Positions 3-16,580 are shown, counted from the first letter of the stretch. The stretch: 16,696 bases of DNA from Candidatus Helarchaeota ASGARD archaeon Hel_GB_B (GCA_005191425.1 SUPR01000076.1:1-16696); one strand, 5' to 3'. Program-made: numbers and translations. Notes: generated by a model not told the origin, from the sequence alone.

Positions 3-467
3 TTTATACCCCAAGAAGGGACTGCTAAATCACTTTTTCCAATACGCCGCATCGCTGCAGAAGGACGTAAATTTGGCGTTGGACTATGTGTTGTTAGCCA
101 AAGACCTGGTAAAGTCCATTCCGATGTTCTGAGCCAGTGTAATTCTCAAATTATTTTAAAAATAATTAACCCCCGCGATCAAAGTCAAATTGAAAACTCA
201 AATGAAGCGATTAGCTCTGATTTATTGGACGATCTGCCCAGCTTAAACAATGGAGAAGCTGTAATTACTGGTCCATCTATTATAATCCCTTCAATTGCAA
301 AAATTTACAAATTTAAAGGTGAACTTGGTGGAGATGATATTAATATACTAAAGGAATGGCAAAATGATGAAAAAATTGAAAATAAAAGCGGTCTTGACGA
401 GATAAATATGGACGAAGTTCAAGATTATACTTCCAATGCAAATCTGATTCGCGGTAAAAAGTGGTAA
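3..467 (+). CDS. herA: HerA ATPase/DNA translocase, C-terminal part (5'-truncated by the window edge)
   Basis: The frame of ORF 225..467 is open from base 3 and reads FIPQEGTAKSLFPIRRIAAEGRKFGVGLCVVSQRPGKVHSDVLSQCNSQIILKIINPRDQ...LPSLNNGEAVITG. EGRKFG, SQRP and LSQCN are HerA/FtsK-family signatures. It lies directly upstream of mre11-rad50, the usual archaeal context. Confidence 0.93.
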   Translation, partial: FIPQEGTAKSLFPIRRIAAEGRKFGVGLCVVSQRPGKVHSDVLSQCNSQIILKIINPRDQSQIENSNEAISSDLLDDLPSLNNGEAVITGPSIIIPSIAKIYKFKGELGGDDINILKEWQNDEKIENKSGLDEINMDEVQDYTSNANLIRGKKW

Positions 468-469
468 TT

Positions 470-1894
470 ATGGTTAAATGGTGCCATTTGTCTGACGTTC
501 ATTTGGGATATAAACAATATAATTTAATTGAGCGATACGAAGACTTCATCGATGCGTTTAATACGTGCATTGAATTAATTATTGAAAAACACCCTGACTT
601 CGTAATATTACCAGGGGATCTGTTTGAACACTTTAATCCTAAGCCTGCCACTCTTAGAAAATGTATAGTAATCTTGGAAAAATTAAAATTAAAAAACATC
701 CCAATTTTTGTATCAAGAGGAAACCACGATGTTTCTACTTCCAAATTTAAAAGATATGGCGGCGATGTTCTTGATTTATTACAAGATCTTTCTTTAATAA
801 ATTATATTAAAGACGATGTAGTAATTGTAAAAAAAGAGGGCAAAGAAATCGCACTAATCGCTGCTCTTGGCTATTACGGTAAAAAAAGTAGTCAAATGCT
901 AAGTTTGTTGTTAGAAAAGCATAAAACTATATTGTCAAGAAATGATTTACCAAAAATCTTAATGTTGCACGCTTTTTTAGAAGATATGATTACAAAAGGT
1001 GGAGAAGATTTAAAGATATATACATTAAATAGACTAAACTTTGATTATATAGCAATAGGACATTACCATTTACAATGGCCGAATAATTATAAAGCCCCTG
1101 GTAATAAAATCTTTTGTAGTGGAGCTACTGAACATAGAAGTTCACTCGAATGGAAACAAAGTACAAGAGGATTCTATTATGTTGAATGCGATAAAATCAA
1201 TAATTCTTTTAACATTACCCCTGAATTTATAGAATATAATGTGCGTCCTAAAAAAAGGATTGTTCTGGATTTAGGTAATATTTCAAAAGAAAAAGCAATA
1301 GAAAAAATATCCTCTGTTATTGCCCAAAACGATATTCCTGATATTTTATTAAGTATTGTCGTTAAAGGCTCACTTAAAAGTGGCGAAATTAAATTAATAG
1401 ACACTAATTCTCTCAAAAAAATTGCTAAAAATGCTCTAAGACTGGACATTATAACTGATTTTACTGATTCTTCAACAATAATATCCAGTAATGAAGATGA
1501 TATACGTGAAACGATGAGTGAAATTTTTAAAAAAATATTCAACATAAATTCAAACGATATACCAACGATGGTATCTCTTGTTGAAGAAATTATTAATAAT
1601 GTTGAAAATAAAGAATTTCAAGATAATTCACTTAAAATGATTAAATATTTTGAAAGAAACATGAAAACTAGTTTAGAAAAATTAATTTCACACGAAAAAA
1701 AAATCTCTAGTAATATCCTCATTGAAAAAATCAATAAAAATTCAAATATAAAAAATACTAAACCAATATCACTTGATAAAAATGAAAATTCTAAAAAATC
1801 TAAACAAGATGATGAAAAAAAATTGAAACCTAAAAGAAATAAAATTAAAAAAGAAAAATTAAAAGAACTAGGAATTAAAAGGTACTTAAAATGA
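470..1894 (+). CDS. mre11: Mre11 (SbcD-like) DNA double-strand break repair nuclease
   Basis: Calcineurin-like phosphoesterase motifs SDVHLG, GDLFE, GNHD, MLH and GHYH are all present, and the gene sits between herA and rad50. ATG at 470, two bases after the herA stop, is preferred over GTG at 461, which would overlap herA. It ends in a Lys-rich tail. Confidence 0.95.
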   Translation: MVKWCHLSDVHLGYKQYNLIERYEDFIDAFNTCIELIIEKHPDFVILPGDLFEHFNPKPATLRKCIVILEKLKLKNIPIFVSRGNHDVSTSKFKRYGGDVLDLLQDLSLINYIKDDVVIVKKEGKEIALIAALGYYGKKSSQMLSLLLEKHKTILSRNDLPKILMLHAFLEDMITKGGEDLKIYTLNRLNFDYIAIGHYHLQWPNNYKAPGNKIFCSGATEHRSSLEWKQSTRGFYYVECDKINNSFNITPEFIEYNVRPKKRIVLDLGNISKEKAIEKISSVIAQNDIPDILLSIVVKGSLKSGEIKLIDTNSLKKIAKNALRLDIITDFTDSSTIISSNEDDIRETMSEIFKKIFNINSNDIPTMVSLVEEIINNVENKEFQDNSLKMIKYFERNMKTSLEKLISHEKKISSNILIEKINKNSNIKNTKPISLDKNENSKKSKQDDEKKLKPKRNKIKKEKLKELGIKRYLK

Positions 1895-4683
1895 TATTAA
1901 ACTATTTATTTTTAAAAAATTTTAGGTCTTATTCTGAAGCAACTATTAATTTTATTGATGGTTATAATGTTATATTGGGCCAAAACGGTTCTGGAAAAAC
2001 TAATATCCTTCTGGGCATCGGTTTTGCGCTTTTTGGGTCAGTAAAAAAGGACGGTAAAGAAGTTAAATTAAAAGACCTTGTCAGACGAGGAGAAAAAAAA
2101 TGCGCAGTTGCTCTTGAATTTACTGTTTCCAGAATTACTTATAGAGTTGAGCGTACAATTGACTTAAATAAAAATAAAACAACAGCTAAACTTTATAAAA
2201 ATGACGCTTTTGTTAGTGAGAATTCAAAAACAGTTACCTCTGATATCGAATCAATACTAAAATTTAACAAATTGACATTTGAAAATATTGTTTATATCGG
2301 ACAAGGAGAAATTCCTAAAATTGCCTCTCAAGAGCCCAATAAAAGAAAAAAAATTTTTGATAAATTATTAGGGTTATCTGCTTATGAATGGGCGCATGAA
2401 AATTTAAAAGACGTTAAAAAGACTATTAAAAATGAATTAGAAGTAAAAAATGAAAAATATAAATTTTATCAAGAACATCTTAAAGAATTACCATTAAAAA
2501 AAGAGCAATTAAAGAATAATACTGACGAACTTAAAGAATTAATTGAGGAGAAAGAGCAATTAAAAGAAAAATATGAAAATAAAAAGAAAGAATTGGACGA
2601 TTTAGAGGAGATAAAAAAGAAATTAGACATAATTTCTAGAGATCTAAGTAATTATGAAACTAACTTAATCAAATTACATTCTCAATTGATTAAAAAAGGA
2701 GAATTTGTTGAAAAAAAACTGAATCGACCAATCGAACTTGATGAACAATATATTAGAAATATAGAGCAATCATTAATAGATAAAGAGCGATCTATTAAGC
2801 AAGACATAATTATTATTCAAGCTGCAATTGATTTTCAAAAGGAATTAGAATTTAATCTACAAAAAAATGAGAGTGATCTTAAAAAATATTTGAATAAGTC
2901 CAAAGATTTAAATAATTACATTGAAAATAAAATTAATTTATCTCTACAAGAATTACCTGCTCTTAATAATATTCCAGAAGATCAGTGGGAGTTATTTATT
3001 GCTCAAGAATTAAGTAATCTGAATTCTCAATCATCTTCCTTAGCCAAAAAAAAGGAGGAAATAATTAAAAAAGAAAAAGAATTGAAAATGAAAAAAGAAG
3101 GTCTTTCAAAATATGAAAATAAATTAGGTGATATTGAAAAAAAGTACGAAACTAAAAGACTTGAAATTGGTAAAATTGATACTAATTGGGAAACATTAAT
3201 CAAAAATTACTCAATCAATGATTTACAGGCTAGTGTTGGTAAATTAAATGAAGACATTGAATTGCATAATAAAAAGATAAATGAATTAAATACTGATTTT
3301 AATATTAAAAATAGTAAACTTCTTGAAATTCAAAATGATATCAATAATATTGAAAAATTAAAACAAGATGCTCAGTGTCCTGTATGTAAACAGATGGTTT
3401 CTGGGCAATATAAGGAGCTTATCCTTCAACAATTAAAAAAAACTCTCGAAACATTAGAATCCGAAATGGAAGAATTAAAAGTTGTAATTAATAATGAAAA
3501 ATCTATTCTAAATGAATTAAATAATACTCTTCAAAATAAAATGACATTAATTGACAAGCTACAAAAAATTTTTATGTTAAATAAAGAACTGGAACATTTT
3601 TCAGATGAAATAAATGATGTTAAGAATGAAATTAATAGTTTAAAGGAAGACATTTCTAAAATTTATATTGAAAATCCTTCTGAATATTACGACAAAGAGA
3701 TAAATAAAACACAAGAACATATTAACAGGGTAAAAAATATTGAAAGTGATATTAAAATCTTATCAGAAAAACGGAAGGAATTGGGTGCTTTAAAGCTAGA
3801 AATTGAAAAATTAAATGAAGATAGGAAATCTATCGAAGAAAAGTTCGATAAATCAAAATTAGACCAAGATTTAAATAAACGTTCATTATTAGATGAAGAA
3901 TTAAACGATATTACTTTAGTTAAACAAAGTTTAACAAATATACTCGAAATTATTAAAGATGAAAACGAGATTGAAGTAGTTTTGAATGAAAGAAAAAAAG
4001 AATACAAATCTTTAAATGAGAAATTTGATCAAAAATTATATAGTGCCCTGAATATTGAAGTAAAAGAATTATCTAAAAATTATAATGAGAAAACTGGAGC
4101 TATAATCCAAATAAAAGAAAAAATTATCCCGAACATAAATCGCGAAATCAATAAATTATTAAAAGAGAAAGAGGAACTCGAGAAAATAAATGAAGATCTT
4201 TATCATTTAAAAAGGCAACTTAACTTAGTCGAAATAATTAGACAATTTTTCCGTGAAATACCACAAATTCTTATACAGCAGCGCACAAGAAAAATTAGCG
4301 AAAAAGCCACTGAATTATTAAAATTAATTTTACCCTCAACCGAATTTGATAAAATTGTAGTTGAAAAAAATTATGATTTAAAGGTCTATAGATTTGGGAA
4401 TGCTGAAGATATCTCACAATTGAGTAGTGGAGAACAAATTGTAGTATGCCTAGCTATTAGATTAGCAATTTCTGATATTTTAGCTGGGCGGGAACTAATT
4501 ATGCTGGACGAACCAACTGCAAATTTAGATTCTGAAAATATTAAGCATTTAGTCGATATTTTTTACCAATTTAGGCCCTCTACTCAAATGATTACTATAA
4601 CTCATGACTCTGAATTTGAAAAAATTGCAGATAACCTTCTAAATGTTGAAAAGAAAAACGGACTTGAATCAGAAATTTATTAA
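1891..4683 (+). CDS. rad50: Rad50 SMC-like ATPase
   Basis: Walker A GQNGSGKTN, Q-loop YIGQGEI, long coiled coil, central zinc hook CPVC (codons 496-499, nt 3376-3387), signature LSSGEQ, Walker B/D-loop IMLDEPTANLD and H-loop ITHD. ATGA overlap with mre11 at 1891-1894. Confidence 0.96.
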   Translation: MILNYLFLKNFRSYSEATINFIDGYNVILGQNGSGKTNILLGIGFALFGSVKKDGKEVKLKDLVRRGEKKCAVALEFTVSRITYRVERTIDLNKNKTTAKLYKNDAFVSENSKTVTSDIESILKFNKLTFENIVYIGQGEIPKIASQEPNKRKKIFDKLLGLSAYEWAHENLKDVKKTIKNELEVKNEKYKFYQEHLKELPLKKEQLKNNTDELKELIEEKEQLKEKYENKKKELDDLEEIKKKLDIISRDLSNYETNLIKLHSQLIKKGEFVEKKLNRPIELDEQYIRNIEQSLIDKERSIKQDIIIIQAAIDFQKELEFNLQKNESDLKKYLNKSKDLNNYIENKINLSLQELPALNNIPEDQWELFIAQELSNLNSQSSSLAKKKEEIIKKEKELKMKKEGLSKYENKLGDIEKKYETKRLEIGKIDTNWETLIKNYSINDLQASVGKLNEDIELHNKKINELNTDFNIKNSKLLEIQNDINNIEKLKQDAQCPVCKQMVSGQYKELILQQLKKTLETLESEMEELKVVINNEKSILNELNNTLQNKMTLIDKLQKIFMLNKELEHFSDEINDVKNEINSLKEDISKIYIENPSEYYDKEINKTQEHINRVKNIESDIKILSEKRKELGALKLEIEKLNEDRKSIEEKFDKSKLDQDLNKRSLLDEELNDITLVKQSLTNILEIIKDENEIEVVLNERKKEYKSLNEKFDQKLYSALNIEVKELSKNYNEKTGAIIQIKEKIIPNINREINKLLKEKEELEKINEDLYHLKRQLNLVEIIRQFFREIPQILIQQRTRKISEKATELLKLILPSTEFDKIVVEKNYDLKVYRFGNAEDISQLSSGEQIVVCLAIRLAISDILAGRELIMLDEPTANLDSENIKHLVDIFYQFRPSTQMITITHDSEFEKIADNLLNVEKKNGLESEIY

Positions 4684-4816: not shown

Positions 4817-7800
4817 TTATCTTATTTTTATTGTAGGATCGCCAAAAAAGATAAAAGAAAAACAAGTTGGATCAAAAAATTTTGATTTGTCTAGCATTTT
4901 CAAAGAATCGTTATATAATTCTAACCTGGATTCTAATAATAATTCACCAATTGTTTTATCGATTTGTTGTAAATTTTTATAAATATAGGTAGCAAATTTT
5001 CTTGCACTCTCGTCCATAATTTCCCACAAAGTTCCAATAAAGCAATTAGCTCCAGATTTAATAAATTGAGCAGCTAGCCCTTCTATTCCTGACCCTGCTT
5101 TTTGTATTTGCCCTGTAATACAAGCTGATGTAAATACTAGAGGATAACCTTCAATTAGACCTTTTTCTTTCACATATTTTTCTAAATCTTCTTGAAACAA
5201 AAATTCAGGCTCTCCTTCTTCTGGAGTTGATAGTATTAGACAGCTTTTATTATCAATAAAATGCCCATGTCCAGAAAAATGTATTATTTTTAGAGGTGTC
5301 TTAAAAATATTGAAAAGCCACTCTTTATCAATTTGTTCATCGATCTTTGCAATAATTTTATCACCAAAAATCCTCTGTATCTGATTTTTTAATATTTTAG
5401 CTTCTTTAATCGCTCCTTCTAACTTATATTCTCCTTCATATTTCGGAGCTATTATTACTACTTTCTCTCCCAATTTTGAAACCATTCTACGAAGCATATT
5501 AAAGGTTAGCATTACACTTGTATCAGAAATATCTGTTGAACATACTCTTCCTATACTTTTTAGAATACATAATGGCATTTTTGTATCATTATTTGAATAA
5601 CTATATAATTCAAAAGGAATTGGGATTCTACTTATTATAATGATATTTTGAGAATTTTCTAGCCCATTTTGAATTGAATTTGGCAATATTTCTCTAATAG
5701 ATTCACCAATTTTAATAATATCTTCTTGAGTAATTGAATTTTCTGAAGTAAATCTCAAAGAACTAAGCATATTTAAGATCGTGTGCTCTTTAATTGCTAA
5801 TTTTTCATCTTCTTTTATTATCCATATCATTGCAGGTTTATTTGCACCATAATTACTTGCCAAAGTTAAAAAGCTATAATCATTTTCAGAAAAAGAAGTT
5901 AAAATACTATTATTAACTAAATTCTTCTCTCCATATCCTGGGTATACCCGTTGTAAATATTCTGATCCTGTATAATTTTGAAAATCTTCAACAATTTTGG
6001 ACTTAAAAATATTATTAATTTTTATAATATGCTCAAAGTTGTCCATTGAATCAAAAATTTTAATCTTAGTTGTTGCTTTTCTTGGAATTTTAATTCCTTC
6101 AAAATTTCCAATTGCCCATATCTGATTTGCATTCAATAATATCTTTTTTGAGTTTTCAGAAGATAACTCGTCTTTAATTATAATACCTGACTGTGTATAT
6201 TTTATTAATGGTAATAATGAAAAAGCTATGACTGGGTCTTCAACGAGATATACATTATCATATTCATGGTCATAGACTTTTTTATTTAACAGTCCCATTT
6301 CACTTATAAATCGATTATATTCTATATATTTAATTGTAATTGCTGATTCAGAACTGGTTTTATATGTTTTACTCAATTTTTTATTAATATAATTCAATTC
6401 ATCTTCAATTATTCTCATTTTATTATAATATTCCTTATTAGAAGTGTAAATTATTATGTTACTCTTATTTTCATTCTCTTCATTTCCTGATAGTGAAGAC
6501 ATTAAATATATTAAATTCATTAATTCCTCTTTGCATTCTTCTACTGAATAGTCCATCATAAATTCTCCAAATATCAAAATTTGGTTTAATAACCCTGGAA
6601 ATTCGTTGCCAATTTCTTTTAAAAACCCTGAATAAATGTCCTTGTTTGATTTCCTTAAGAATTTTTCAGATATTTTTCCTTTATCTAAAAATAAAATTGG
6701 CGTATAATCAAAATTTAAAAAATTTGGATACCAATTTTGTTTGTACTTTAATTTATTAATGTATAAACATGAACTCAAGCAATATTTCCAGTTTGTTGGA
6801 TCTGTAAAAATAAATACACCCGAAAAAGTAGGATTTACATTACAATATAATGTAAAATTTATATTATGACCAAATCCCATATAGTCCAATTCTTCTTTAC
6901 TCTTAATTTTACTTCTTGGATTCTTCTTACCGACCAATCTTTTTATTAACTTGAATTTTAATTTGGTAGTTTTGTCATCTTTTTCTACATCAAAAGGAGA
7001 AAAATTAATGCGGAGGACCACATCATCTTGAATAATTAATGTTGCATTTTCTTGAACTTCCACAATACCTTGCGTTTCAATAACAAAAACATAATCTTTA
7101 TCTTGCATTTTTTGAGGTAATATAGAAAAAACATCTCTAGCGAATGGGTCTCCTTTCATTATTTGCGGTTTTTCTATTTTAAAATTTAATTTCAAGTCCT
7201 CTTCATAAATTCGCTCAATTATTGGATTTATCGACATAAATGTAAGTCCCGTTCTAAAAAAGCGCATTTCAGGATATGCTTTCTGTTCTTTAATTTCAAG
7301 ATTTGGTAAAAAATATAACTTAAATGAAACTGATCTGTTATAGTCATTATTTGTAAATTTTATGTTTTCTCCATCCAAATACAATGTTGACCCACTGAAA
7401 GTTAATTTATTGTTTCCTTCTATATGACAGACTTTCCTTTTCCATTTATTTGCCCAAAATTTTGCCTTGGGAAAATCAAAATGCTCTAACTCTTGGATTT
7501 TCTTTATTAAATTCTTATTAGCTTCTGTTGCTTCTTGTTGTGAAATTGTACCTTTATTTAAATAGTACGAAAATTCCCCTAAAAGATACCTAAACGGTAT
7601 TCGTTCCTCAACTTTTAAAAATGCTTTATCACCTAATTTTCTACTTACTTCTTCTTGCTTTTTGCAGTATTCTATTAATTCTTGATATAATTTTATTTTT
7701 TCATCAATTATTATTACTTTTTTTGGAATTTGTTCCCATAATAACATGATTAATTGGTCATAGATATGTTCCAATAATTTTAGATTATCCGAATCTTTAA

Positions 7801-8077
7801 AATAATCATATGCCTTCATAATAGCATTATATGCCTTGTTTTTCAGGTCAAATTGAATATCTCTAAATTTGTATCTATTAACTTTTTCTGCAAGAATTGA
7901 CAAACCCAATGAATATAAAAAGTAACCAATTGATTGTATTTTTTCGTCCTCTATATTATCTAATTCTTCAAAAATTTTAAATTTTGATTCAATTTCCTCT
8001 GTAAATTTTTTGTTGTCCAAATTATAATAACTCTCTAATAATTGCAAAATAGCGTCTTTAATTGTTTCCGTTTCCAA
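4817..8077 (-). CDS. Large (1086 aa) protein with a C-terminal CHAT (caspase HetF-associated, clan CD) cysteine protease domain and intact His/Cys dyad
   Basis: C-terminal CHAT motifs: IPIPFELY, IIHFSGHG (His937, nt 5267-5269), PLVFTSAC (Cys986, nt 5120-5122), GLAAQFIKSGANCFIGTLWEIMDESA and FIFFGDP. The N-terminal ~210 aa look helical and ~220-410 look beta-rich, by eye. The TTG start is supported by GGAGGT 8 nt upstream. Confidence 0.88.
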   Translation of the reverse strand: METETIKDAILQLLESYYNLDNKKFTEEIESKFKIFEELDNIEDEKIQSIGYFLYSLGLSILAEKVNRYKFRDIQFDLKNKAYNAIMKAYDYFKDSDNLKLLEHIYDQLIMLLWEQIPKKVIIIDEKIKLYQELIEYCKKQEEVSRKLGDKAFLKVEERIPFRYLLGEFSYYLNKGTISQQEATEANKNLIKKIQELEHFDFPKAKFWANKWKRKVCHIEGNNKLTFSGSTLYLDGENIKFTNNDYNRSVSFKLYFLPNLEIKEQKAYPEMRFFRTGLTFMSINPIIERIYEEDLKLNFKIEKPQIMKGDPFARDVFSILPQKMQDKDYVFVIETQGIVEVQENATLIIQDDVVLRINFSPFDVEKDDKTTKLKFKLIKRLVGKKNPRSKIKSKEELDYMGFGHNINFTLYCNVNPTFSGVFIFTDPTNWKYCLSSCLYINKLKYKQNWYPNFLNFDYTPILFLDKGKISEKFLRKSNKDIYSGFLKEIGNEFPGLLNQILIFGEFMMDYSVEECKEELMNLIYLMSSLSGNEENENKSNIIIYTSNKEYYNKMRIIEDELNYINKKLSKTYKTSSESAITIKYIEYNRFISEMGLLNKKVYDHEYDNVYLVEDPVIAFSLLPLIKYTQSGIIIKDELSSENSKKILLNANQIWAIGNFEGIKIPRKATTKIKIFDSMDNFEHIIKINNIFKSKIVEDFQNYTGSEYLQRVYPGYGEKNLVNNSILTSFSENDYSFLTLASNYGANKPAMIWIIKEDEKLAIKEHTILNMLSSLRFTSENSITQEDIIKIGESIREILPNSIQNGLENSQNIIIISRIPIPFELYSYSNNDTKMPLCILKSIGRVCSTDISDTSVMLTFNMLRRMVSKLGEKVVIIAPKYEGEYKLEGAIKEAKILKNQIQRIFGDKIIAKIDEQIDKEWLFNIFKTPLKIIHFSGHGHFIDNKSCLILSTPEEGEPEFLFQEDLEKYVKEKGLIEGYPLVFTSACITGQIQKAGSGIEGLAAQFIKSGANCFIGTLWEIMDESARKFATYIYKNLQQIDKTIGELLLESRLELYNDSLKMLDKSKFFDPTCFSFIFFGDPTIKIR

Positions 8078-8079
8078 TT

Positions 8080-9870
8080 TTATTGACCTCCAATTTTAGA
8101 TTTTTCATCACCAAATAATGAAAAACTAAACCAAGAATATTTCATTCCCCAATTATATTCAAATATTTGTTTTCTCGTTAAGTTTAAAGCTTTTGAGATG
8201 GGCTCTCCTTTTAGGAGTAGCTTTTGAAATAATAATATAAACTCAAGAAAATCCTCTTTACTTAAGGTAATAAAATTAGTAAGAAAATTACAATTACTCT
8301 TCAATATAGGAATTGCATTATAAAATGAATGTTCTAAATATTCTATTTTTTGATTTTGAATTATATTTCCCATTATAAATAATCTAGGGAATGATTTCGC
8401 TGATTTATAAATATTTGAAAGTAATATTTCAGATCTACCCCATTTTAATTTTATTTCAGGTATTTCTTCTGCAAATTTCTTAAAATTTCCAAGATAGACT
8501 ACTATATCATAATCTTTATCTAAGATTTGGTCGATTTCACTATGCCCTCCTTCACTTAAAATAGAAATATTACACTTATTGTTATTTAATTTCTTAATTT
8601 TATTTTTAATTTCATTATCTTTTGTTCTATAAATAAATAATATACTAATATTTTTTCCTTTATTAATCGTAGAAATATTTTCCGGATAAATACTATTTTC
8701 TTCAACAAACTTTCGAATTAAATAATCTTTTAAACAAATAAATTGTCTATTATTAAAAATTAGCTCAAAAGGAAACTTAATATTCTTAAAATCATTTTGT
8801 ATGATTACATTTTGGTCAGTTACTAATCTATTTCTATAATTTATTTTACTACCCATTAAATATTTCAGCAAATATTCTCCCAATTTTCTTAAACCGTCAA
8901 AATACTTAACTTTTAATTTTTCATCAATGTTTTTTGATTTCCTCACATTATTTAAAACCTGAATGTAATCTTGTACTTTTTTTCCCATGTTTTTAATAAT
9001 TGTGCTCGAAACTTTTATACTGTCTTTTTCTGGACGTAATGCAAACATGGGATCATATGTTATTTTTAAACTTTGACCGGAAGAAACATATTTTAATTTA
9101 AAATTCGTATCAAAAGATAATTTGTAATTATCTAAATTAATATTTTTATCTTTTATTTCCTCCAAGATCTTTTGTAAATGTCTGGCATCATTATACATCT
9201 CATCATTAGCAAAAACTACATAAATTTCATGATTTTTTTCAAGAAGTTTATTTGCTTTTTTAACAATGTCCAATAGGTCCGTTTTTTTAAATAGATATTG
9301 ATCTAATTGTTCTCCAAATCCATGCATCCTTGTATATATTATTCCCTCTTTGTTGTAATTAATAGGATCTGAAAATGAAATGTCAATACTATGTCCAATA
9401 TTAAATGTATTTAAAGTCTCTATTAATTTAGGTAGAACATTTTTATCTCTCCAATTAAATCCTCTAAACTCCCAAAATAAATTAACATCGTTTAATTTAA
9501 CTGAATTAAAAAAATCATTAAAATTCTTAAAAAAAGTATCATTAAATTCCTGAAAATAATGCGTTTCCATTAGTAATTTATTACTTTTCAAATTTTGCAT
9601 CAAATTTCTAATTTTCTCAAAAGTTTCCAGCGCCTCTTCTCTTAAATTTGAATATAAAAATTGATATTTATGCGTAATAAACCTGTTCATTTTTATAACA
9701 AATTCAAAATCGCTAGATTTACTAGATAATTTATTTAATTTAGTTAATTCATCTTTTGAAATAAATCGATAGAATGTATTAGCTAATTCTACAAACTGGA
9801 AATATTTAGGATATTCAGAAATTTGAACGCGTGTAACTTTTGGAAAATAAGTACAACTAATTTTAATCAT
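8080..9870 (-). CDS. DUF72 (YecE-like TIM barrel) fused to a catalytically dead CHAT-like domain, 596 aa
   Basis: Residues 1-238 carry DUF72 motifs in order: FVELANTFY, FEFVIK...ITH, FWEFRG, IYTRMHG, YVVFAND-MYNDA. Residues ~325-592 carry CHAT scaffold motifs: LRKLGEYLLKYLM, FPFELIFNNRQFICL, GEPISKALNLTRK and WFSFSLFGD. The dyad positions read VVYLGNF and PRLFIMGN. Confidence 0.8.
   Translation of the reverse strand: MIKISCTYFPKVTRVQISEYPKYFQFVELANTFYRFISKDELTKLNKLSSKSSDFEFVIKMNRFITHKYQFLYSNLREEALETFEKIRNLMQNLKSNKLLMETHYFQEFNDTFFKNFNDFFNSVKLNDVNLFWEFRGFNWRDKNVLPKLIETLNTFNIGHSIDISFSDPINYNKEGIIYTRMHGFGEQLDQYLFKKTDLLDIVKKANKLLEKNHEIYVVFANDEMYNDARHLQKILEEIKDKNINLDNYKLSFDTNFKLKYVSSGQSLKITYDPMFALRPEKDSIKVSSTIIKNMGKKVQDYIQVLNNVRKSKNIDEKLKVKYFDGLRKLGEYLLKYLMGSKINYRNRLVTDQNVIIQNDFKNIKFPFELIFNNRQFICLKDYLIRKFVEENSIYPENISTINKGKNISILFIYRTKDNEIKNKIKKLNNNKCNISILSEGGHSEIDQILDKDYDIVVYLGNFKKFAEEIPEIKLKWGRSEILLSNIYKSAKSFPRLFIMGNIIQNQKIEYLEHSFYNAIPILKSNCNFLTNFITLSKEDFLEFILLFQKLLLKGEPISKALNLTRKQIFEYNWGMKYSWFSFSLFGDEKSKIGGQ
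8086..8091 (-). promoter_or_regulatory. Shine-Dalgarno site (GGAGGT) for the CHAT gene, embedded in the last codons of the upstream gene
   Basis: The minus strand reads GGAGGT-CAATAAAA-TTG, with TTG at 8077. Confidence 0.75.
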
Positions 9871-12422: not shown

Positions 12423-12610
12423 ATTCCTTCTTTTATTAAATTTTAAGGTTTGCCTTAAAAATATTTATGGTCTTTTTCCCTTTAAATTATTATATTATTT
12501 GAATTATTAACTTAAGTTTTGAATTTTATTATATTACTTTTTTATCAATTTACTGATCTTTACTTTTAAATTTAACTCCAATGTTTTATTGATCTTTTTA
12601 AAATATAAAT

Positions 12611-12961
12611 CTATAGGGTTTCTTTTTCGAGTCCAGCATGTACCTTATCTCACCAAAATCGCCTTGTAAATTTAAGTGCCAGATAAATTCTATCATGGTA
12701 TATTCCAAGTTCATATGTTGTAGATTCTTTTGTGAAGAAGAATCAAAAAACAAAATGGAATGTATCTTTATAATCTTGATTAAGTTTTGATTGTTTTTAA
12801 GACGAGTTGGATTTGTATATAATACTTTATGATTCTATAGCCTCATCAAAATAACATAAAAAAACTTGATAAAAAGATTCTACATTTTTTAATGGAATTT
12901 CTCTCCCCATATCTTCCTCAGTTCCAGTTTCGGTATCACTTTCGAAAAAGTATTCTACCAT
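12611..12961 (-). pseudogene. Decayed gene of unknown family, downstream of the CBS pseudogene
   Basis: GAGGT (12974-12970) lies 8 nt before ATG 12961. The frame reads MVEYFFESDTETGTEEDMGREIPLKNVESFYQVFLCYFDEAIES*SIIYKSNSS*KQSKLNQDYKDTFHFVF*FFFTKESTTYELGIYHDRIYLALKFTRRFW*DKVHAGLEKETL*. Stops are at 12829, 12799, 12745, 12652 and 12613. The 3' end is uncertain and may extend to ~12535. Confidence 0.55.
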
Positions 12962-12969
12962 ATAATTTT

Positions 12970-12974
12970 ACCTC
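12970..12974 (-). promoter_or_regulatory. Shine-Dalgarno site (GAGGT) of the second decayed gene
   Basis: The minus strand reads TAA-ATAAT-GAGGT-AAAATTAT-ATG between the CBS pseudogene stop and ATG 12961. Confidence 0.6.
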
Positions 12975-12979
12975 ATTAT

Positions 12980-13434
12980 TTAAGAAAATGTTGTATCATA
13001 CGCTCGAGAGTATCTCTTTACTCTCTCCATAAATTTTTCATGAATTAATTCTATAATTTTTTCATCTGATGTAAATGCAATTCTTTTAACCGGAGATTTA
13101 CTAAACTCGTCTCTCAAATCTTCAATACTGGTAAATAGCTTATCCCCATCTATTGAAATGATTTTTTCACTATAATGTTCTCCGTTTTATAACCATATAT
13201 TTTTTTATTACCATCCAGAACTAATTTCCAAATAATTTTGTCAGGTATCACTCCCACTATTTTTCCCTACTCTCTTTTAATACAAAAGACCGTATCTACC
13301 CAGTTTTCCACCATCTTTTAAGCAACTTTTGGTATTGAATCATAACTATAACAACAAATGATGCGAGAACTCATGATATCTTTAATTATAGTAAGAGAAA
13401 CAGGCTTAGCTCCAGTCAAAACTTTTACATTCAT
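12980..13434 (-). pseudogene. CBS-domain pair protein pseudogene
   Basis: Manual translation gives MNVKVLTGAKPVSLTIIKDIMSSRIICCYSYDSIPKVA*KMVENWVDTVFCIKRE*GKIVGVIPDKIIWKLVLDGNKKIYGYKTENIIVKK, a frameshift in an A6 run at 13167-13162, then IISIDGDKLFTSIEDLRDEFSKSPVKRIAFTSDEKIIELIHEKFMERVKRYSRAYDTTFS*. IKDIMS...KMVEN...GKIVGVI is a CBS pattern. In-frame stops are TAA 13320 and TAG 13269. The 455-nt span is one base short of a multiple of 3. Confidence 0.82.
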
Positions 13435-14075
13435 TCTTTCTTTAGAGTATTCTATCGTTTCTTTAAATTTTTCTATGATTCTTATTTTAAAATCGAATTA
13501 ATATAAAAAACAAAACTTAAATCTTTCTGGTAATTTATGTGAATTTCTCAAATATATGATTTTCTTTTAAAATATTTGAGACAATGATTAATATAGATTA
13601 AATTAAAATAAATCATCTGCATCAGGTTATATATAATAAAAAAATAGTCTATCTGTAAATAATATAATTTAAAATGTTAAGTTTTTATTTTTATATTAAT
13701 TTTAAATAAAAATATTCAATACTATATATTTATTCAAGGAAAAAATTTTGTTTTTTCATATTTTTATTAATTTTTTCCTTTAAAATGAGAGAAAAGGATA
13801 CGTGTGATTTGTTTTTAAACATTGAAAATCTTGATAAGAAAAATTGATAATTCTTAATTATAGCGAAAATATTCATATTTAGGAATATATCCTTCTCTAT
13901 TACTATTTAAGAGAATTTTACTAAAATTAATATAATGAACATTTTTAAATAATTACTATACCATTTGATTAAAAACTGAGATCTTAATAACTCACATCAA
14001 ATAATTATAATTTTAATAAATAACCTTTATTATAAATTCAAACTACTTTCTACTTCTCTTTCACTAACCAACAAG

Positions 14076-14142
14076 AAACCTTGTCAAAAAGAAGGTTTTG
14101 ACAAAAATTATAGTCATTAAGCCAGAACGAAAATTTGTCAAA
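14076..14142. promoter_or_regulatory. Operator-like inverted repeat upstream of the 14229/14886 genes
   Basis: Perfect 9-bp inverted repeat TTGTCAAAA (14081-14089), 6-nt spacer, TTTTGACAA (14096-14104). An overlapping second one is AAACCTT (14076-14082) / AAGGTTT (14092-14098). An extra half-site TTGTCAAA lies at 14135-14142. Confidence 0.55.
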
Positions 14143-14228
14143 TTATATTTATTCTAGGAAATATCAATATTAATTAGAAATATTTTAAAAATGAAAAAAA
14201 ATAATGAAAAAAATAGAGATGTAATAAA

Positions 14229-14849
14229 ATGGATGTATTAGATTTAGAGCCCATAAATGAAAAAAAAGTCTTTTTATTTTTGTTAGTAAAAGAAAAAACT
14301 GGGATCTTTAATACTGAAGCGATAAATCTACTGGATTTATTTAGAGAAAACAAATTTGATCTAATAACTAGCGATTTAGATACAGAAAACAAATTTAATA
14401 TGAAAATTACAAAGTATTTAGACAATTTTGAAATGCATGTTTTTAAAGTGGGTATTCCTGAAAATGCTAATGGTTATTTAAAGGAAGAATTAGATCGAAA
14501 AAAGTGCCTTATGAAAGAATTAGCTGATGTATATGAAATATTAGAAGATAAAAAATCTTTTAAAGCTCAAAATATCAAAGTTTGGATAGATCTACTTAAA
14601 GATGATATTGAAAAAGAAGAATATGAATTGGATTTCAAAATCAGACCTCAATGGATCATGAAAAAATTCCTAGATTTTATTCGAAAAACTGATCAAGCTG
14701 TAATAAAACTCTTACATTTTACATCAGAAGGATTATTTGATGAGTTGAAGAATCTTGGGAAAGAAATGAACATGACCGTTTATGCTTTTGAAATTATGGA
14801 GCCTGAGATTTCAAAAAAATGGGTTTTATATCCGAAATGCATGAAATAG
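14229..14849 (+). CDS. Hypothetical protein, stand-alone paralog of the N-terminal domain of the downstream Mtd fusion
   Basis: It aligns by eye along its length with residues 1-218 of 14886..16580: MDVLDLEPINEKK / MEVLELEPLKEKK; VGIPENANGYL / VDISQNALDYI; WIDLLKDDIEKEEYELDFKIRPQWIMKK / WRDYLKRSYDEEEQDIRLRVREAWMFMK; FDELKNLGKEM / FNGLSNLADEL. Confidence 0.8.
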   Translation: MDVLDLEPINEKKVFLFLLVKEKTGIFNTEAINLLDLFRENKFDLITSDLDTENKFNMKITKYLDNFEMHVFKVGIPENANGYLKEELDRKKCLMKELADVYEILEDKKSFKAQNIKVWIDLLKDDIEKEEYELDFKIRPQWIMKKFLDFIRKTDQAVIKLLHFTSEGLFDELKNLGKEMNMTVYAFEIMEPEISKKWVLYPKCMK

Positions 14850-14885: not shown

Positions 14886-16580
14886 ATGGAAGTATTAGAA
14901 CTTGAACCTTTAAAGGAAAAAAAATTAAAATTGTTTTTGGTAGAATACGAATATCCAATAAATTTCTATATGGATCAAAAAAAATACAACGAGAGAGAAT
15001 TTCTTAATTTAAAATTCATCTCGCGGAACTATGTTGATTTTATAGAAAGTCTAATCAAAGAAAATCATCCTGCATTTATAGTTGAAGAGGGTGGGATGCG
15101 CACTAAAGACGAATTTTTATATGACAACCATCTAATTGAATTGTATAAGAAATATGAATTACCCTTCGACATGGTTGATATCTCCCAAAATGCTCTTGAT
15201 TACATAAATGATACAATGCAAGATAAAAAGAATCTACTCGACGCTATTGAAAGTGAGTTGGCCAAATTAGTTATAAATAAAGATTTATCGAAAAGTAATG
15301 AGTTATATATACAAAAATTGATGATGTGGAGAGATTATCTAAAGAGATCTTATGATGAAGAAGAGCAAGATATTCGGCTCAGAGTAAGAGAAGCCTGGAT
15401 GTTCATGAAGATATTAAAGATGGCCGAGAAATTTGAAGCAAAGAAAATAAATGCCATGTTTCTATGTGATAAAAGACATTTTAATGGTCTCTCAAATCTT
15501 GCAGATGAATTGGGAGTAAATATTGTAAAAATAGAAATAAATAAGATCGTAAAAAATGTGAATCCATCAGGTGAAAATTTAGAAATTATTGATTTAATTA
15601 ATAAAGCAGACCTTGATATAGTTCCAATCAAAGTAAAAGCGGTTGATAAATCTGAAAAAATTCTTTACTTCTTTGATACAGATGAATATGCATCCCCGTT
15701 TGATATAAATATGGCATATGATGCTGGCTTCGATGTGGTTGTTCCTTTTAACAATATGACGGCGGATAAAGTCCAAAAACTCGTGCAAGATGCAATTTTT
15801 TCCAGAAAACCAAAATCGCCGACTGCGTTTTTTATTGGAGGATCAAATGTTAAAGAAGGAGAAAAAATCGCAAAAAAAGTTCTGAAATCATTCGTCCCTG
15901 GCTTTGAAACCCCAGTTATCATAGATCCAAGGGGTTCTCATACAACCGCATCTGCACTGGTTGCAAAAACTGAACAACTTGCCGCTGAGTTAGGTATTAA
16001 TAGTCTTGAAGGCAAAAAGGTGGTAGTTTTGGGTACCGGTCCAGTTGGACAATTGACATCTATTCTAGCCGCCAAACTTCGGGCTAAAGTATATTTGGTC
16101 GAAACTTGGGATGGAGCTACTGAGGAATATGTGAAAAATCTTGCAGATGAATTAACAGATAAAGCCGGCGAGAATGCCACCAAAATAACCGGGGTATATG
16201 CGACAAATGATGAAAGTAAATTTGAAATTTTGAAAGATGCAAATATAGTTTGGTCTGTTGCAGCAGCTGGTATCCAGATAGTATCTAAGGAACTGGCTGA
16301 GAAATTATCTCCAAATACTATAGTCGCAGATATCAATGCGGTCCCTCCAATGGGAATTGAAGGGATGAAACCTAATACAGATAAAAAAGAAATTTATCCT
16401 GGTGTATTTGGTATTGGACCATTATCCATTGGTAGAATAAAATATACAACCGAAAATAAGATACTTGCAAAAGCTGCAAAATCCAAGGGCAAGAAAATTT
16501 TCGATTACAATAAAGCATTCGAGATTGCAAGAAGTCTTTTAGGTTTAGAATATAAGAAAATAATGGTGGAAATTAAATAA
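14886..16580 (+). CDS. mtdB: NAD(P)-dependent methylene-tetrahydromethanopterin dehydrogenase (MtdA/MtdB family) with a ~250-aa N-terminal extra domain
   Basis: From residue 258: KILYFFDTDEYASPFDINMAYDAGF, VQDAIFSR, FIGG, DPRGSHTTASA, Rossmann motif VVVLGTGPVG, ADINAVPPMGIEG and GIGPLSIGRIKY, all characteristic of MtdA/B. This is not the F420-dependent Mtd of methanogens. MtdA versus MtdB cannot be resolved by eye. Confidence 0.88.
   Translation: MEVLELEPLKEKKLKLFLVEYEYPINFYMDQKKYNEREFLNLKFISRNYVDFIESLIKENHPAFIVEEGGMRTKDEFLYDNHLIELYKKYELPFDMVDISQNALDYINDTMQDKKNLLDAIESELAKLVINKDLSKSNELYIQKLMMWRDYLKRSYDEEEQDIRLRVREAWMFMKILKMAEKFEAKKINAMFLCDKRHFNGLSNLADELGVNIVKIEINKIVKNVNPSGENLEIIDLINKADLDIVPIKVKAVDKSEKILYFFDTDEYASPFDINMAYDAGFDVVVPFNNMTADKVQKLVQDAIFSRKPKSPTAFFIGGSNVKEGEKIAKKVLKSFVPGFETPVIIDPRGSHTTASALVAKTEQLAAELGINSLEGKKVVVLGTGPVGQLTSILAAKLRAKVYLVETWDGATEEYVKNLADELTDKAGENATKITGVYATNDESKFEILKDANIVWSVAAAGIQIVSKELAEKLSPNTIVADINAVPPMGIEGMKPNTDKKEIYPGVFGIGPLSIGRIKYTTENKILAKAAKSKGKKIFDYNKAFEIARSLLGLEYKKIMVEIK

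Follow-up and report, generated by a model that had tools for sequence, protein, structure and literature searches.

A DUF72 barrel fused to a dyad-less CHAT domain is encoded next to an active-type CHAT protease in Asgard archaea

A 16.7 kb stretch of DNA from Candidatus Helarchaeota archaeon Hel_GB_B (SUPR01000076.1; the whole stretch is called the window in the following) encodes on its minus strand the protein P0001, in which a DUF72 barrel is joined to a caspase-fold CHAT domain devoid of the catalytic His–Cys dyad, and directly downstream the CHAT protein P0002. The described system closest to the C-terminal half of P0001 is Csx29 (TPR-CHAT) of type III-E CRISPR (Craspase; 7Y9X, 8EEX, 8D9F), which is its best structural match over the whole CHAT domain (residues 420–750). 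Both systems are also alike in concept, as Csx29 is a CHAT protease that works with a nucleic-acid-sensing partner. Nevertheless, Csx29 keeps its dyad, is bound to Cas7-11 and has an N-terminal TPR, whereas in P0001 the dyad is gone and a DUF72 domain takes the N-terminal place. Furthermore, the two share only 8–10% sequence identity, and the window contains no cas genes and gives no PADLOC match.

Separase is built from a non-catalytic caspase-like half paired with a catalytic half. Structures of separase (Peptidase C50; 5FC2, 7NJ1, 9HMA) match the C-terminal half of P0001 with Z ∼21 over ∼300 residues. However, both halves of separase are part of one active chain, whereas here the entire dead CHAT domain and the live one belong to two different polypeptides. 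Conservation of the caspase fold despite loss of the His/Cys dyad is known from cFLIP(L), which regulates its active paralogue (PMC7586951), and from the bacterial pseudo-orthocaspases with Tyr/Ser replacing His/Cys (PMC6426788). In contrast to P0001 these proteins belong to the C14 branch and not to CHAT, and none of them is fused to DUF72. In addition, the pairing of cFLIP with its active paralogue has been demonstrated, whereas the pairing of P0001 is known as one of adjacent genes.

The N-terminal half of P0001 has its counterparts in the stand-alone DUF72 proteins (TM1631, EF0366, E. coli YecE; 1VPQ, 1VPY, 1ZTV), which are TIM barrels of the family PF01904 and canonically consist of this single domain. 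For TM1631 a computational study predicted endonuclease activity on DNA lesions (PMC3828134), and the DUF72 fold is close to that of UV-damage endonuclease (UVDE), with DUF72 genes being enriched near polB2 (PMC11791011). Our literature search yielded neither an experimental function for DUF72 nor a paper on a DUF72–CHAT fusion.

We suggest, with a probability of roughly one half, that P0001 is a non-catalytic pseudoprotease subunit which couples its DUF72 barrel to the live protease P0002. The gene and its parts, all on the minus strand, are as follows.

8080-9870, minus strand: DUF72–pseudoCHAT fusion gene P0001, 596 amino acids, stop codon included in the coordinates (translation of the open reading frame; seven full-length orthologues and three fragments)
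9163-9870, minus strand: DUF72 TIM-barrel domain, residues 1-236 (PF01904, E 2.1e-23; Z 14.1-15.2 to DUF72 crystal structures; conserved polar residues)
9115-9162, minus strand: variable inter-domain linker, residues 237-252 (poorly conserved in the family alignment; model confidence lowered to pLDDT 63-65 at residues 231-250)
8083-9114, minus strand: CHAT domain of caspase fold lacking the catalytic dyad, residues 253-596 (profile match to 20 CHAT domains by hhalign; fold match to Csx29 and separase; no Pfam match)
8485-8487, minus strand: codon AAT of Asn462, which is aligned with the catalytic His (motif YD..-Y-x-G-[H]; MAFFT and hhalign; codon checked)
8359-8367, minus strand: codons of Asn502-Ile503-Ile504, which replace the CHAT N-A-C motif (MAFFT and hhalign; Asn502 invariant, position 504 I/L/Y; codons checked)

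The open reading frame of P0001 is intact. Its seven full-length orthologues come from independent assemblies, measure 592–607 amino acids, are 41–61% identical and have the same two-domain architecture. Moreover, metagenome contigs of three other sequencing runs span the junction of the two domains as well as the codons of the dyad, differing in a single base and showing no indels. Both halves of the protein are under purifying selection: for the closest pair (the window and locus L001) the ratio of nonsynonymous to synonymous substitutions (dN/dS, NG86) is 0.26/1.49 or ∼0.17 in the DUF72 half and 0.28/0.95 or ∼0.29 in the CHAT half, while more distant pairs give 0.14–0.20, and 0.19–0.20 for the CHAT half where dS is computable; as dS is near saturation these figures are rough. 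The AlphaFold2 model of P0001 has a mean predicted local distance difference test score (pLDDT) of 81.7 and a predicted template modelling score (pTM) of 0.74, with most of the C-terminal half above 90.

That the C-terminal half is a CHAT domain had been proposed in an earlier reading of the window from its sequence alone (the sequence-only reading). Simple searches do not reveal it. In residues 240–596 Pfam finds no CHAT match (PF12770) even at E 10, BLASTP against the C-terminus of the neighbour P0002 aligns nothing but a C-terminal tail of 15 residues (FSF..FGD, E 0.27), and phmmer with the whole P0001 against the PDB sequences yields no match at E 1. Against 1.8 billion representatives, phmmer retrieves fragments of the family and 18 distant matches (E 9e-9 to 9e-4, ∼300 residues aligned), all 18 of which carry the Pfam CHAT domain across the aligned stretch. 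The comparison of the family profile with a profile of 20 CHAT domains by hhalign gives a probability of 99.87% (E 1.1e-31, 311 columns). In the structure comparison, model residues 253–590 superimpose on the Csx29 CHAT domain with Z 22.6 and a root-mean-square deviation (rmsd) of 3.4 Å over 295 residues; next to separase, further matches are DdvA (Z 18), gingipain (16.7) and caspase-6 (12.2). The C-terminal half is thus clearly a CHAT domain, far beyond chance, though one that Pfam does not see.

Within this domain both catalytic positions have been substituted. In 20 active CHAT domains that we compared both His and Cys are invariant, and the first motif reads Y-D-x-I-H-x-x-G-H. The fusion family has Y-D-I-x-x-Y-x-G-N/T/A instead, with N, N, T, T, T, A, T and T in the His column of the eight sequences that cover it. 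In P0001 this column holds Asn462, just as the sequence-only reading had it. The same reading was right about the loss of the Cys but placed it at Asn502, which is probably two residues off. This assignment stemmed from an ungapped alignment, and after the conserved Pro the neighbouring protease is one residue short and the family has one extra residue (Gly501). MAFFT and hhalign place the invariant Asn502 opposite the conserved Asn of the N-A-C motif and Ile504 opposite the catalytic Cys, and the strand that ends at residue 503 in the AlphaFold2 model agrees with this. Thus, the Cys-equivalent residue is most likely Ile504. In the nine covering sequences the residues of this column are I, L, I, I, L, Y, I, I and L, and no family member has a Cys at 502, 503 or 504. 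As the dyad is missing at every covered position in all nine sequences, which derive from independent metagenome-assembled genomes (MAGs) and metagenomes, its loss is an ancient, family-wide trait and not specific to one strain. The flanking scaffold motifs (YD..Y.G, P..F..GN, NFLTNF, W.SF.LFGD) are kept, again as read beforehand; of these, NFLTNF is an invariant strand at residues 528–533. With the fold kept, the catalytic residues gone and the gene under selection, P0001 is a pseudoprotease, in line with what the sequence-only reading had concluded. Neither of the two outcomes which that reading had named as refuting it occurred, as the match to the CHAT fold is strong and none of the homologues retains the dyad.

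The identification of the N-terminal half as DUF72, also anticipated by that reading, is likewise far beyond chance. The PF01904 match extends over residues 16–233 and profile positions 10–215 of 217 with 84 bits at a cut-off of 25.3. Model residues 1–236 match 1ZTV, 1VPY and 1VPQ with Z 15.2, 15.0 and 14.1 (rmsd 3.3–3.4 Å over 220–224 residues), and the DUF72 structures outscore the next TIM barrels (Z 12.5). Nine polar residues had been listed as conserved in this half. When the fusion family is aligned with eight canonical and divergent Asgard DUF72 proteins, six of them (E28, K60, H67, E134, R136, R181) are invariant and H183 is nearly so (at least 90%); T66 and W140 are kept as well. The two remaining residues do not hold up to the same extent, as D163 is invariant within the fusion family only and N222 is not conserved in the family (N in two members, T in six). 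The six invariant residues look like the predicted site of TM1631 (Glu42, Lys72, His79, Glu143, Arg145, Arg191), to which they were matched by motif position and not by alignment. Unlike the stand-alone proteins, to whose canonical members the fusion is 22–28% identical, every member of the fusion family has a deletion of ∼12 residues which removes the N-terminal motif SGW.Y..WKG (G-x-S-G-W-x-Y-x-x-W-K-G, after strand 1).

DUF72 as such is widespread: 9 of the 14 genomes taken as controls have it, among them E. coli, B. subtilis and Sulfolobus, as do 30 of the 31 related Asgard genomes, where the canonical form is a single-domain protein with open frames of 248–336 amino acids. No short stand-alone protein related to the DUF72 half was retrieved by a word-index search, but the genome search did find relatives. 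On contig C76 of the source genome (positions 385-2385) two DUF72 genes lie in tandem, a canonical one of 285 amino acids (202 bits) and a divergent one of 317 amino acids with a C-terminal extension of ∼70 residues. The latter, with 27–28% identity, is the closest stand-alone relative of the fusion, and the same divergent type of 316–330 amino acids recurs in the related genomes G123–G128. In the ESM Atlas, searched by features and shape, CHAT clusters occur with other partner domains and none with DUF72; as the Atlas consists of clusters of at least 50 members, this is not proof of absence.

The second part of the system is the gene that follows the fusion.

4817-8077, minus strand: partner gene P0002, 1086 amino acids, with a C-terminal CHAT/Peptidase_C25 domain of the active type (PF12770, E 1.3e-20; PF01364, E 3.9e-13; six orthologues)
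4820-5770, minus strand: CHAT protease domain of the partner, residues ∼770-1086 (His937 at 5267-5269 and Cys986 at 5120-5122; codons checked)
8086-8091, minus strand: Shine–Dalgarno-like element GGAGGT within the last fusion codons, 8 nucleotides before the TTG start of the partner

Searching with the part of P0002 outside the CHAT domain yields six orthologues of 778–1088 amino acids. H937 and C986 are invariant in all of them and fall into the dyad columns of the 20 CHAT domains. In the N-terminal 760 residues Pfam finds nothing significant, and the AlphaFold2 model of P0002, built from three sequences, is too poor for use (pLDDT 48). The source genome contains eight genes matching Pfam CHAT on eight contigs, with open frames of 287–1092 amino acids, which is a sizeable expansion of caspase-like proteases for one Asgard genome.

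The pairing of the two genes is strict. In all nine loci with enough sequence (the window, L001, L002/L003, L004, L034, L035, L036, L037 and L038) the fusion gene lies directly upstream of an orthologue of P0002, a CHAT protease of 1082–1088 amino acids with intact dyad, on the same strand, the spacing ranging from a gap of 2 nucleotides to an overlap of 32 nucleotides. All nine are from Asgard archaea where the source names a taxon. In six junctions (window, L001, L002, L034–L036) a GGAGG is present 7–10 nucleotides before the partner start, inside the last codons of the fusion. The conserved C-terminal Gly–Gly of the fusion is explained by this double use, as GGAGG also serves as ribosome-binding site of the partner; the C-terminal sequence of the protein thus appears to be constrained by a translation signal (8083-8091 in the window and the equivalent junctions). 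The pair occurs in at least three different neighbourhoods: it is convergent with Rad50–Mre11 in the window and L001, divergent from NurA–HerA–Mre11 in L034, and is flanked by a CoA ligase and an amino-acid permease in L002, L035 and L036. Both genes are missing from the same-genus genome G126 (93% complete) according to our search, and a search of the 399 other genomes of the phylum did not retrieve the fusion. The two trees agree in pairing the window with L001. Given the joint presence and absence and the pairing in nine of nine loci, the pair behaves as one accessory module.

A cluster for the repair of DNA breaks (HerA–Mre11–Rad50, in L034 also NurA) abuts the pair in three loci, with differing sides and orientations.

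3-4683, plus strand: HerA fragment, Mre11-like phosphoesterase and Rad50/SbcC, in the window
1-3928 in L034: corresponding break-repair cluster
13631-17800 in L001: corresponding break-repair cluster

In one clade (L002 14512-15546; L035 9754-10773) the pair is followed, two genes downstream, by a small GTPase of the Arf/Ras/Roc type fused to Roadblock/LC7, a typical Asgard "eukaryotic signature" gene. No Cas domain was found among the proteins of the window or in the neighbourhoods of L001, L002 and L034–L036 and there was no PADLOC match; PADLOC and NCBIfam also give no match for P0001 or P0002 themselves.

As the two genes are strictly paired, we infer that P0001 may act as an adaptor or inhibitor of P0002. 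In the mechanism that we suggest, P0001 would be produced from the same transcript as the downstream P0002, would be translationally coupled to it and would associate physically with it. The CHAT domain, having been without His–Cys dyad for a long time, cannot act as a cysteine protease any more but would serve as a docking or regulatory module, a use known from pseudo-caspases as well as from the pseudo-protease halves in separase and in Csx29. The divergent DUF72 barrel, which retains the conserved polar pocket of its family, would be the sensing or enzymatic head, by analogy probably aimed at damaged or unusual nucleic acid.

There is a precedent for the coexistence of a live and a dead CHAT domain. 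In P0009, a protein of 794 amino acids, the first of two CHAT domains has an intact dyad. In the second, which is the best of the distant phmmer matches (E 9e-9), G-H has become G-N and N-A-C has become N-A-E. As in the pair described here, a dead CHAT domain accompanies a live one; unlike in the pair, both are in one chain and DUF72 is missing. In addition, the dead domain of P0009 is sister to an active CHAT in the tree, and therefore the dyad has been lost independently. What is new in the present case is thus the fusion to DUF72 and the Asgard setting. The gene of P0009 (locus L033, 6001-8385) has a TIR_2 gene and a DEAD/ResIII helicase gene as neighbours, an arrangement reminiscent of a conflict or defence island.

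Several points weigh against the suggested mechanism. The DUF72 half not only lacks the SGW.Y..WKG motif but also scores 84 bits compared to ∼200 for the canonical copy of the same genome, and its activity may differ or may have been lost. CHAT proteases of known structure (separase, Csx29) are monomers with an internal pseudo-dimer (PMC11506125), and heterodimerization in the manner of caspase-8 and cFLIP is for this reason not the default expectation. Evidence for the putative binding of P0001 to P0002 is indirect, namely the adjacency of the genes at nine of nine loci. The link to the Mre11/Rad50 cluster is absent in the clade of L002, L035 and L036. Finally, a recent duplication of the partner did not give rise to the dead domain. 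We considered an origin by recent tandem duplication of the CHAT domain of P0002 and rejected it: in the maximum-likelihood tree the pseudo-CHAT and the partner CHAT clades each have 100/100 support, sit on long stems and are not sisters. A complex prediction of the pseudo-CHAT with the partner CHAT domain scored 0.00; as it had no controls it counts neither way.

Among the other explanations, the one in which P0001 is not a regulator but a substrate of P0002 is unlikely. The dead CHAT domain would then serve as decoy or as docking handle, and the DUF72 enzyme would be released or activated by a cut in the linker (residues 237–252), comparable to the cleavage of Csx30 by Csx29 or the activation of PCaspase by SAVED-CHAT. 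The strict operon pairing is equally expected in this case, the linker is poorly conserved and of lower confidence between two well-folded domains, and cleavage of a co-encoded protein by CHAT proteases is documented (PMC10028731; bioRxiv 10.1101/2023.06.23.546230). On the contrary, the linker shows no conserved candidate cleavage motif across the family, and a domain of 340 residues under purifying selection would be a costly docking handle.

It is also not likely that P0001 functions on its own, with the dead CHAT domain being an oligomerization or scaffold domain of a DUF72 enzyme and P0002 being co-regulated without interaction. Such a role would fit with the conserved pocket residues of DUF72 and with the eight CHAT genes of the genome, which suggest that this lineage commonly builds its proteins with CHAT folds. 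This explanation has difficulties with the pairing in nine of nine loci across different neighbourhoods, with the overlapping or 2-nucleotide-spaced frames and the embedded ribosome-binding site, which are typical of subunits of one complex, and with the same-genus genome G126, in which both genes were not found.

A more far-reaching version of the regulatory mechanism is rather doubtful as a whole. Here the pair would constitute an Asgard-specific protease switch triggered by nucleic acid: DUF72 would sense damaged or foreign DNA, signal through the dead CHAT domain and release the separase-like protease, in connection with the abutting NurA–HerA–Mre11–Rad50 cluster.

It is very improbable that the C-terminal half is still a hydrolase that uses non-canonical residues. 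At the strand of the former active site N502 is kept in 9 of 9 and Q505 in 8 of 9 sequences, but no conserved Cys, Ser, Thr or His is present at or beside either dyad position, and the only invariant Cys of the half (C379) sits in the scaffold motif F.CLK, which is common to active CHAT domains. That P0001 is artefactual or degenerating, be it a chimeric assembly, two genes read through as one or a pseudogene, can be counted as refuted already, as the sequence-only reading had argued with regard to decay: we found nothing in favour of it, and the orthologues of identical architecture from independent assemblies, the indel-free contigs of three other runs and a dN/dS far under 1 all speak against it.

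The window has a G+C content of ∼25% and belongs to a genome of 3.5 Mb that is 94% complete. The annotations of the nearest homologues name Candidatus Helarchaeota and Promethearchaeota MAGs, that is Asgard archaea, and the DNA of the window is present in hydrothermal-vent and marine-sediment metagenomes. Beyond P0001 follow a gene of the metallo-beta-lactamase fold, an AMP-binding enzyme, a stretch of 1.8 kb free of open reading frames and two Mtd-related genes. The AT-rich stretch (12423-14228, ∼20–27% G+C) has no open reading frame longer than 51 amino acids; neither a tRNA nor an Rfam family reaching the gathering score was detected in it, and tblastx showed no similarity to the related loci compared. 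The stretch may represent the remains of a gene or an extended regulatory region. An open reading frame of 206 amino acids next to it (14229-14849) has no Pfam or NCBIfam match and lies upstream of a gene (14886-16580, plus strand) for a protein of 564 amino acids. In this protein the match to Mpt_N, the N-terminal domain of methylene-tetrahydromethanopterin dehydrogenase, begins only at residue 271 and is preceded by ∼270 residues without assigned domain.

The significance of the pair is limited by its narrow distribution of nine loci. Within these limits, DUF72 is a widespread family without assigned function, and a conserved fusion with a protein-interaction module that is locked to a specific protease gene provides a concrete, testable partner and thereby a rare functional clue. 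P0001 and P0002 are also an archaeal example of the repeatedly seen combination of dead with live caspase-fold domains, and in the Asgard setting proteases similar to separase are relevant to how eukaryotic machinery originated. If the pair were in fact a protease switch triggered by nucleic acid, this would be the first function for DUF72 and would reveal, in the archaea most closely related to eukaryotes, a counterpart of Craspase that works independently of CRISPR.

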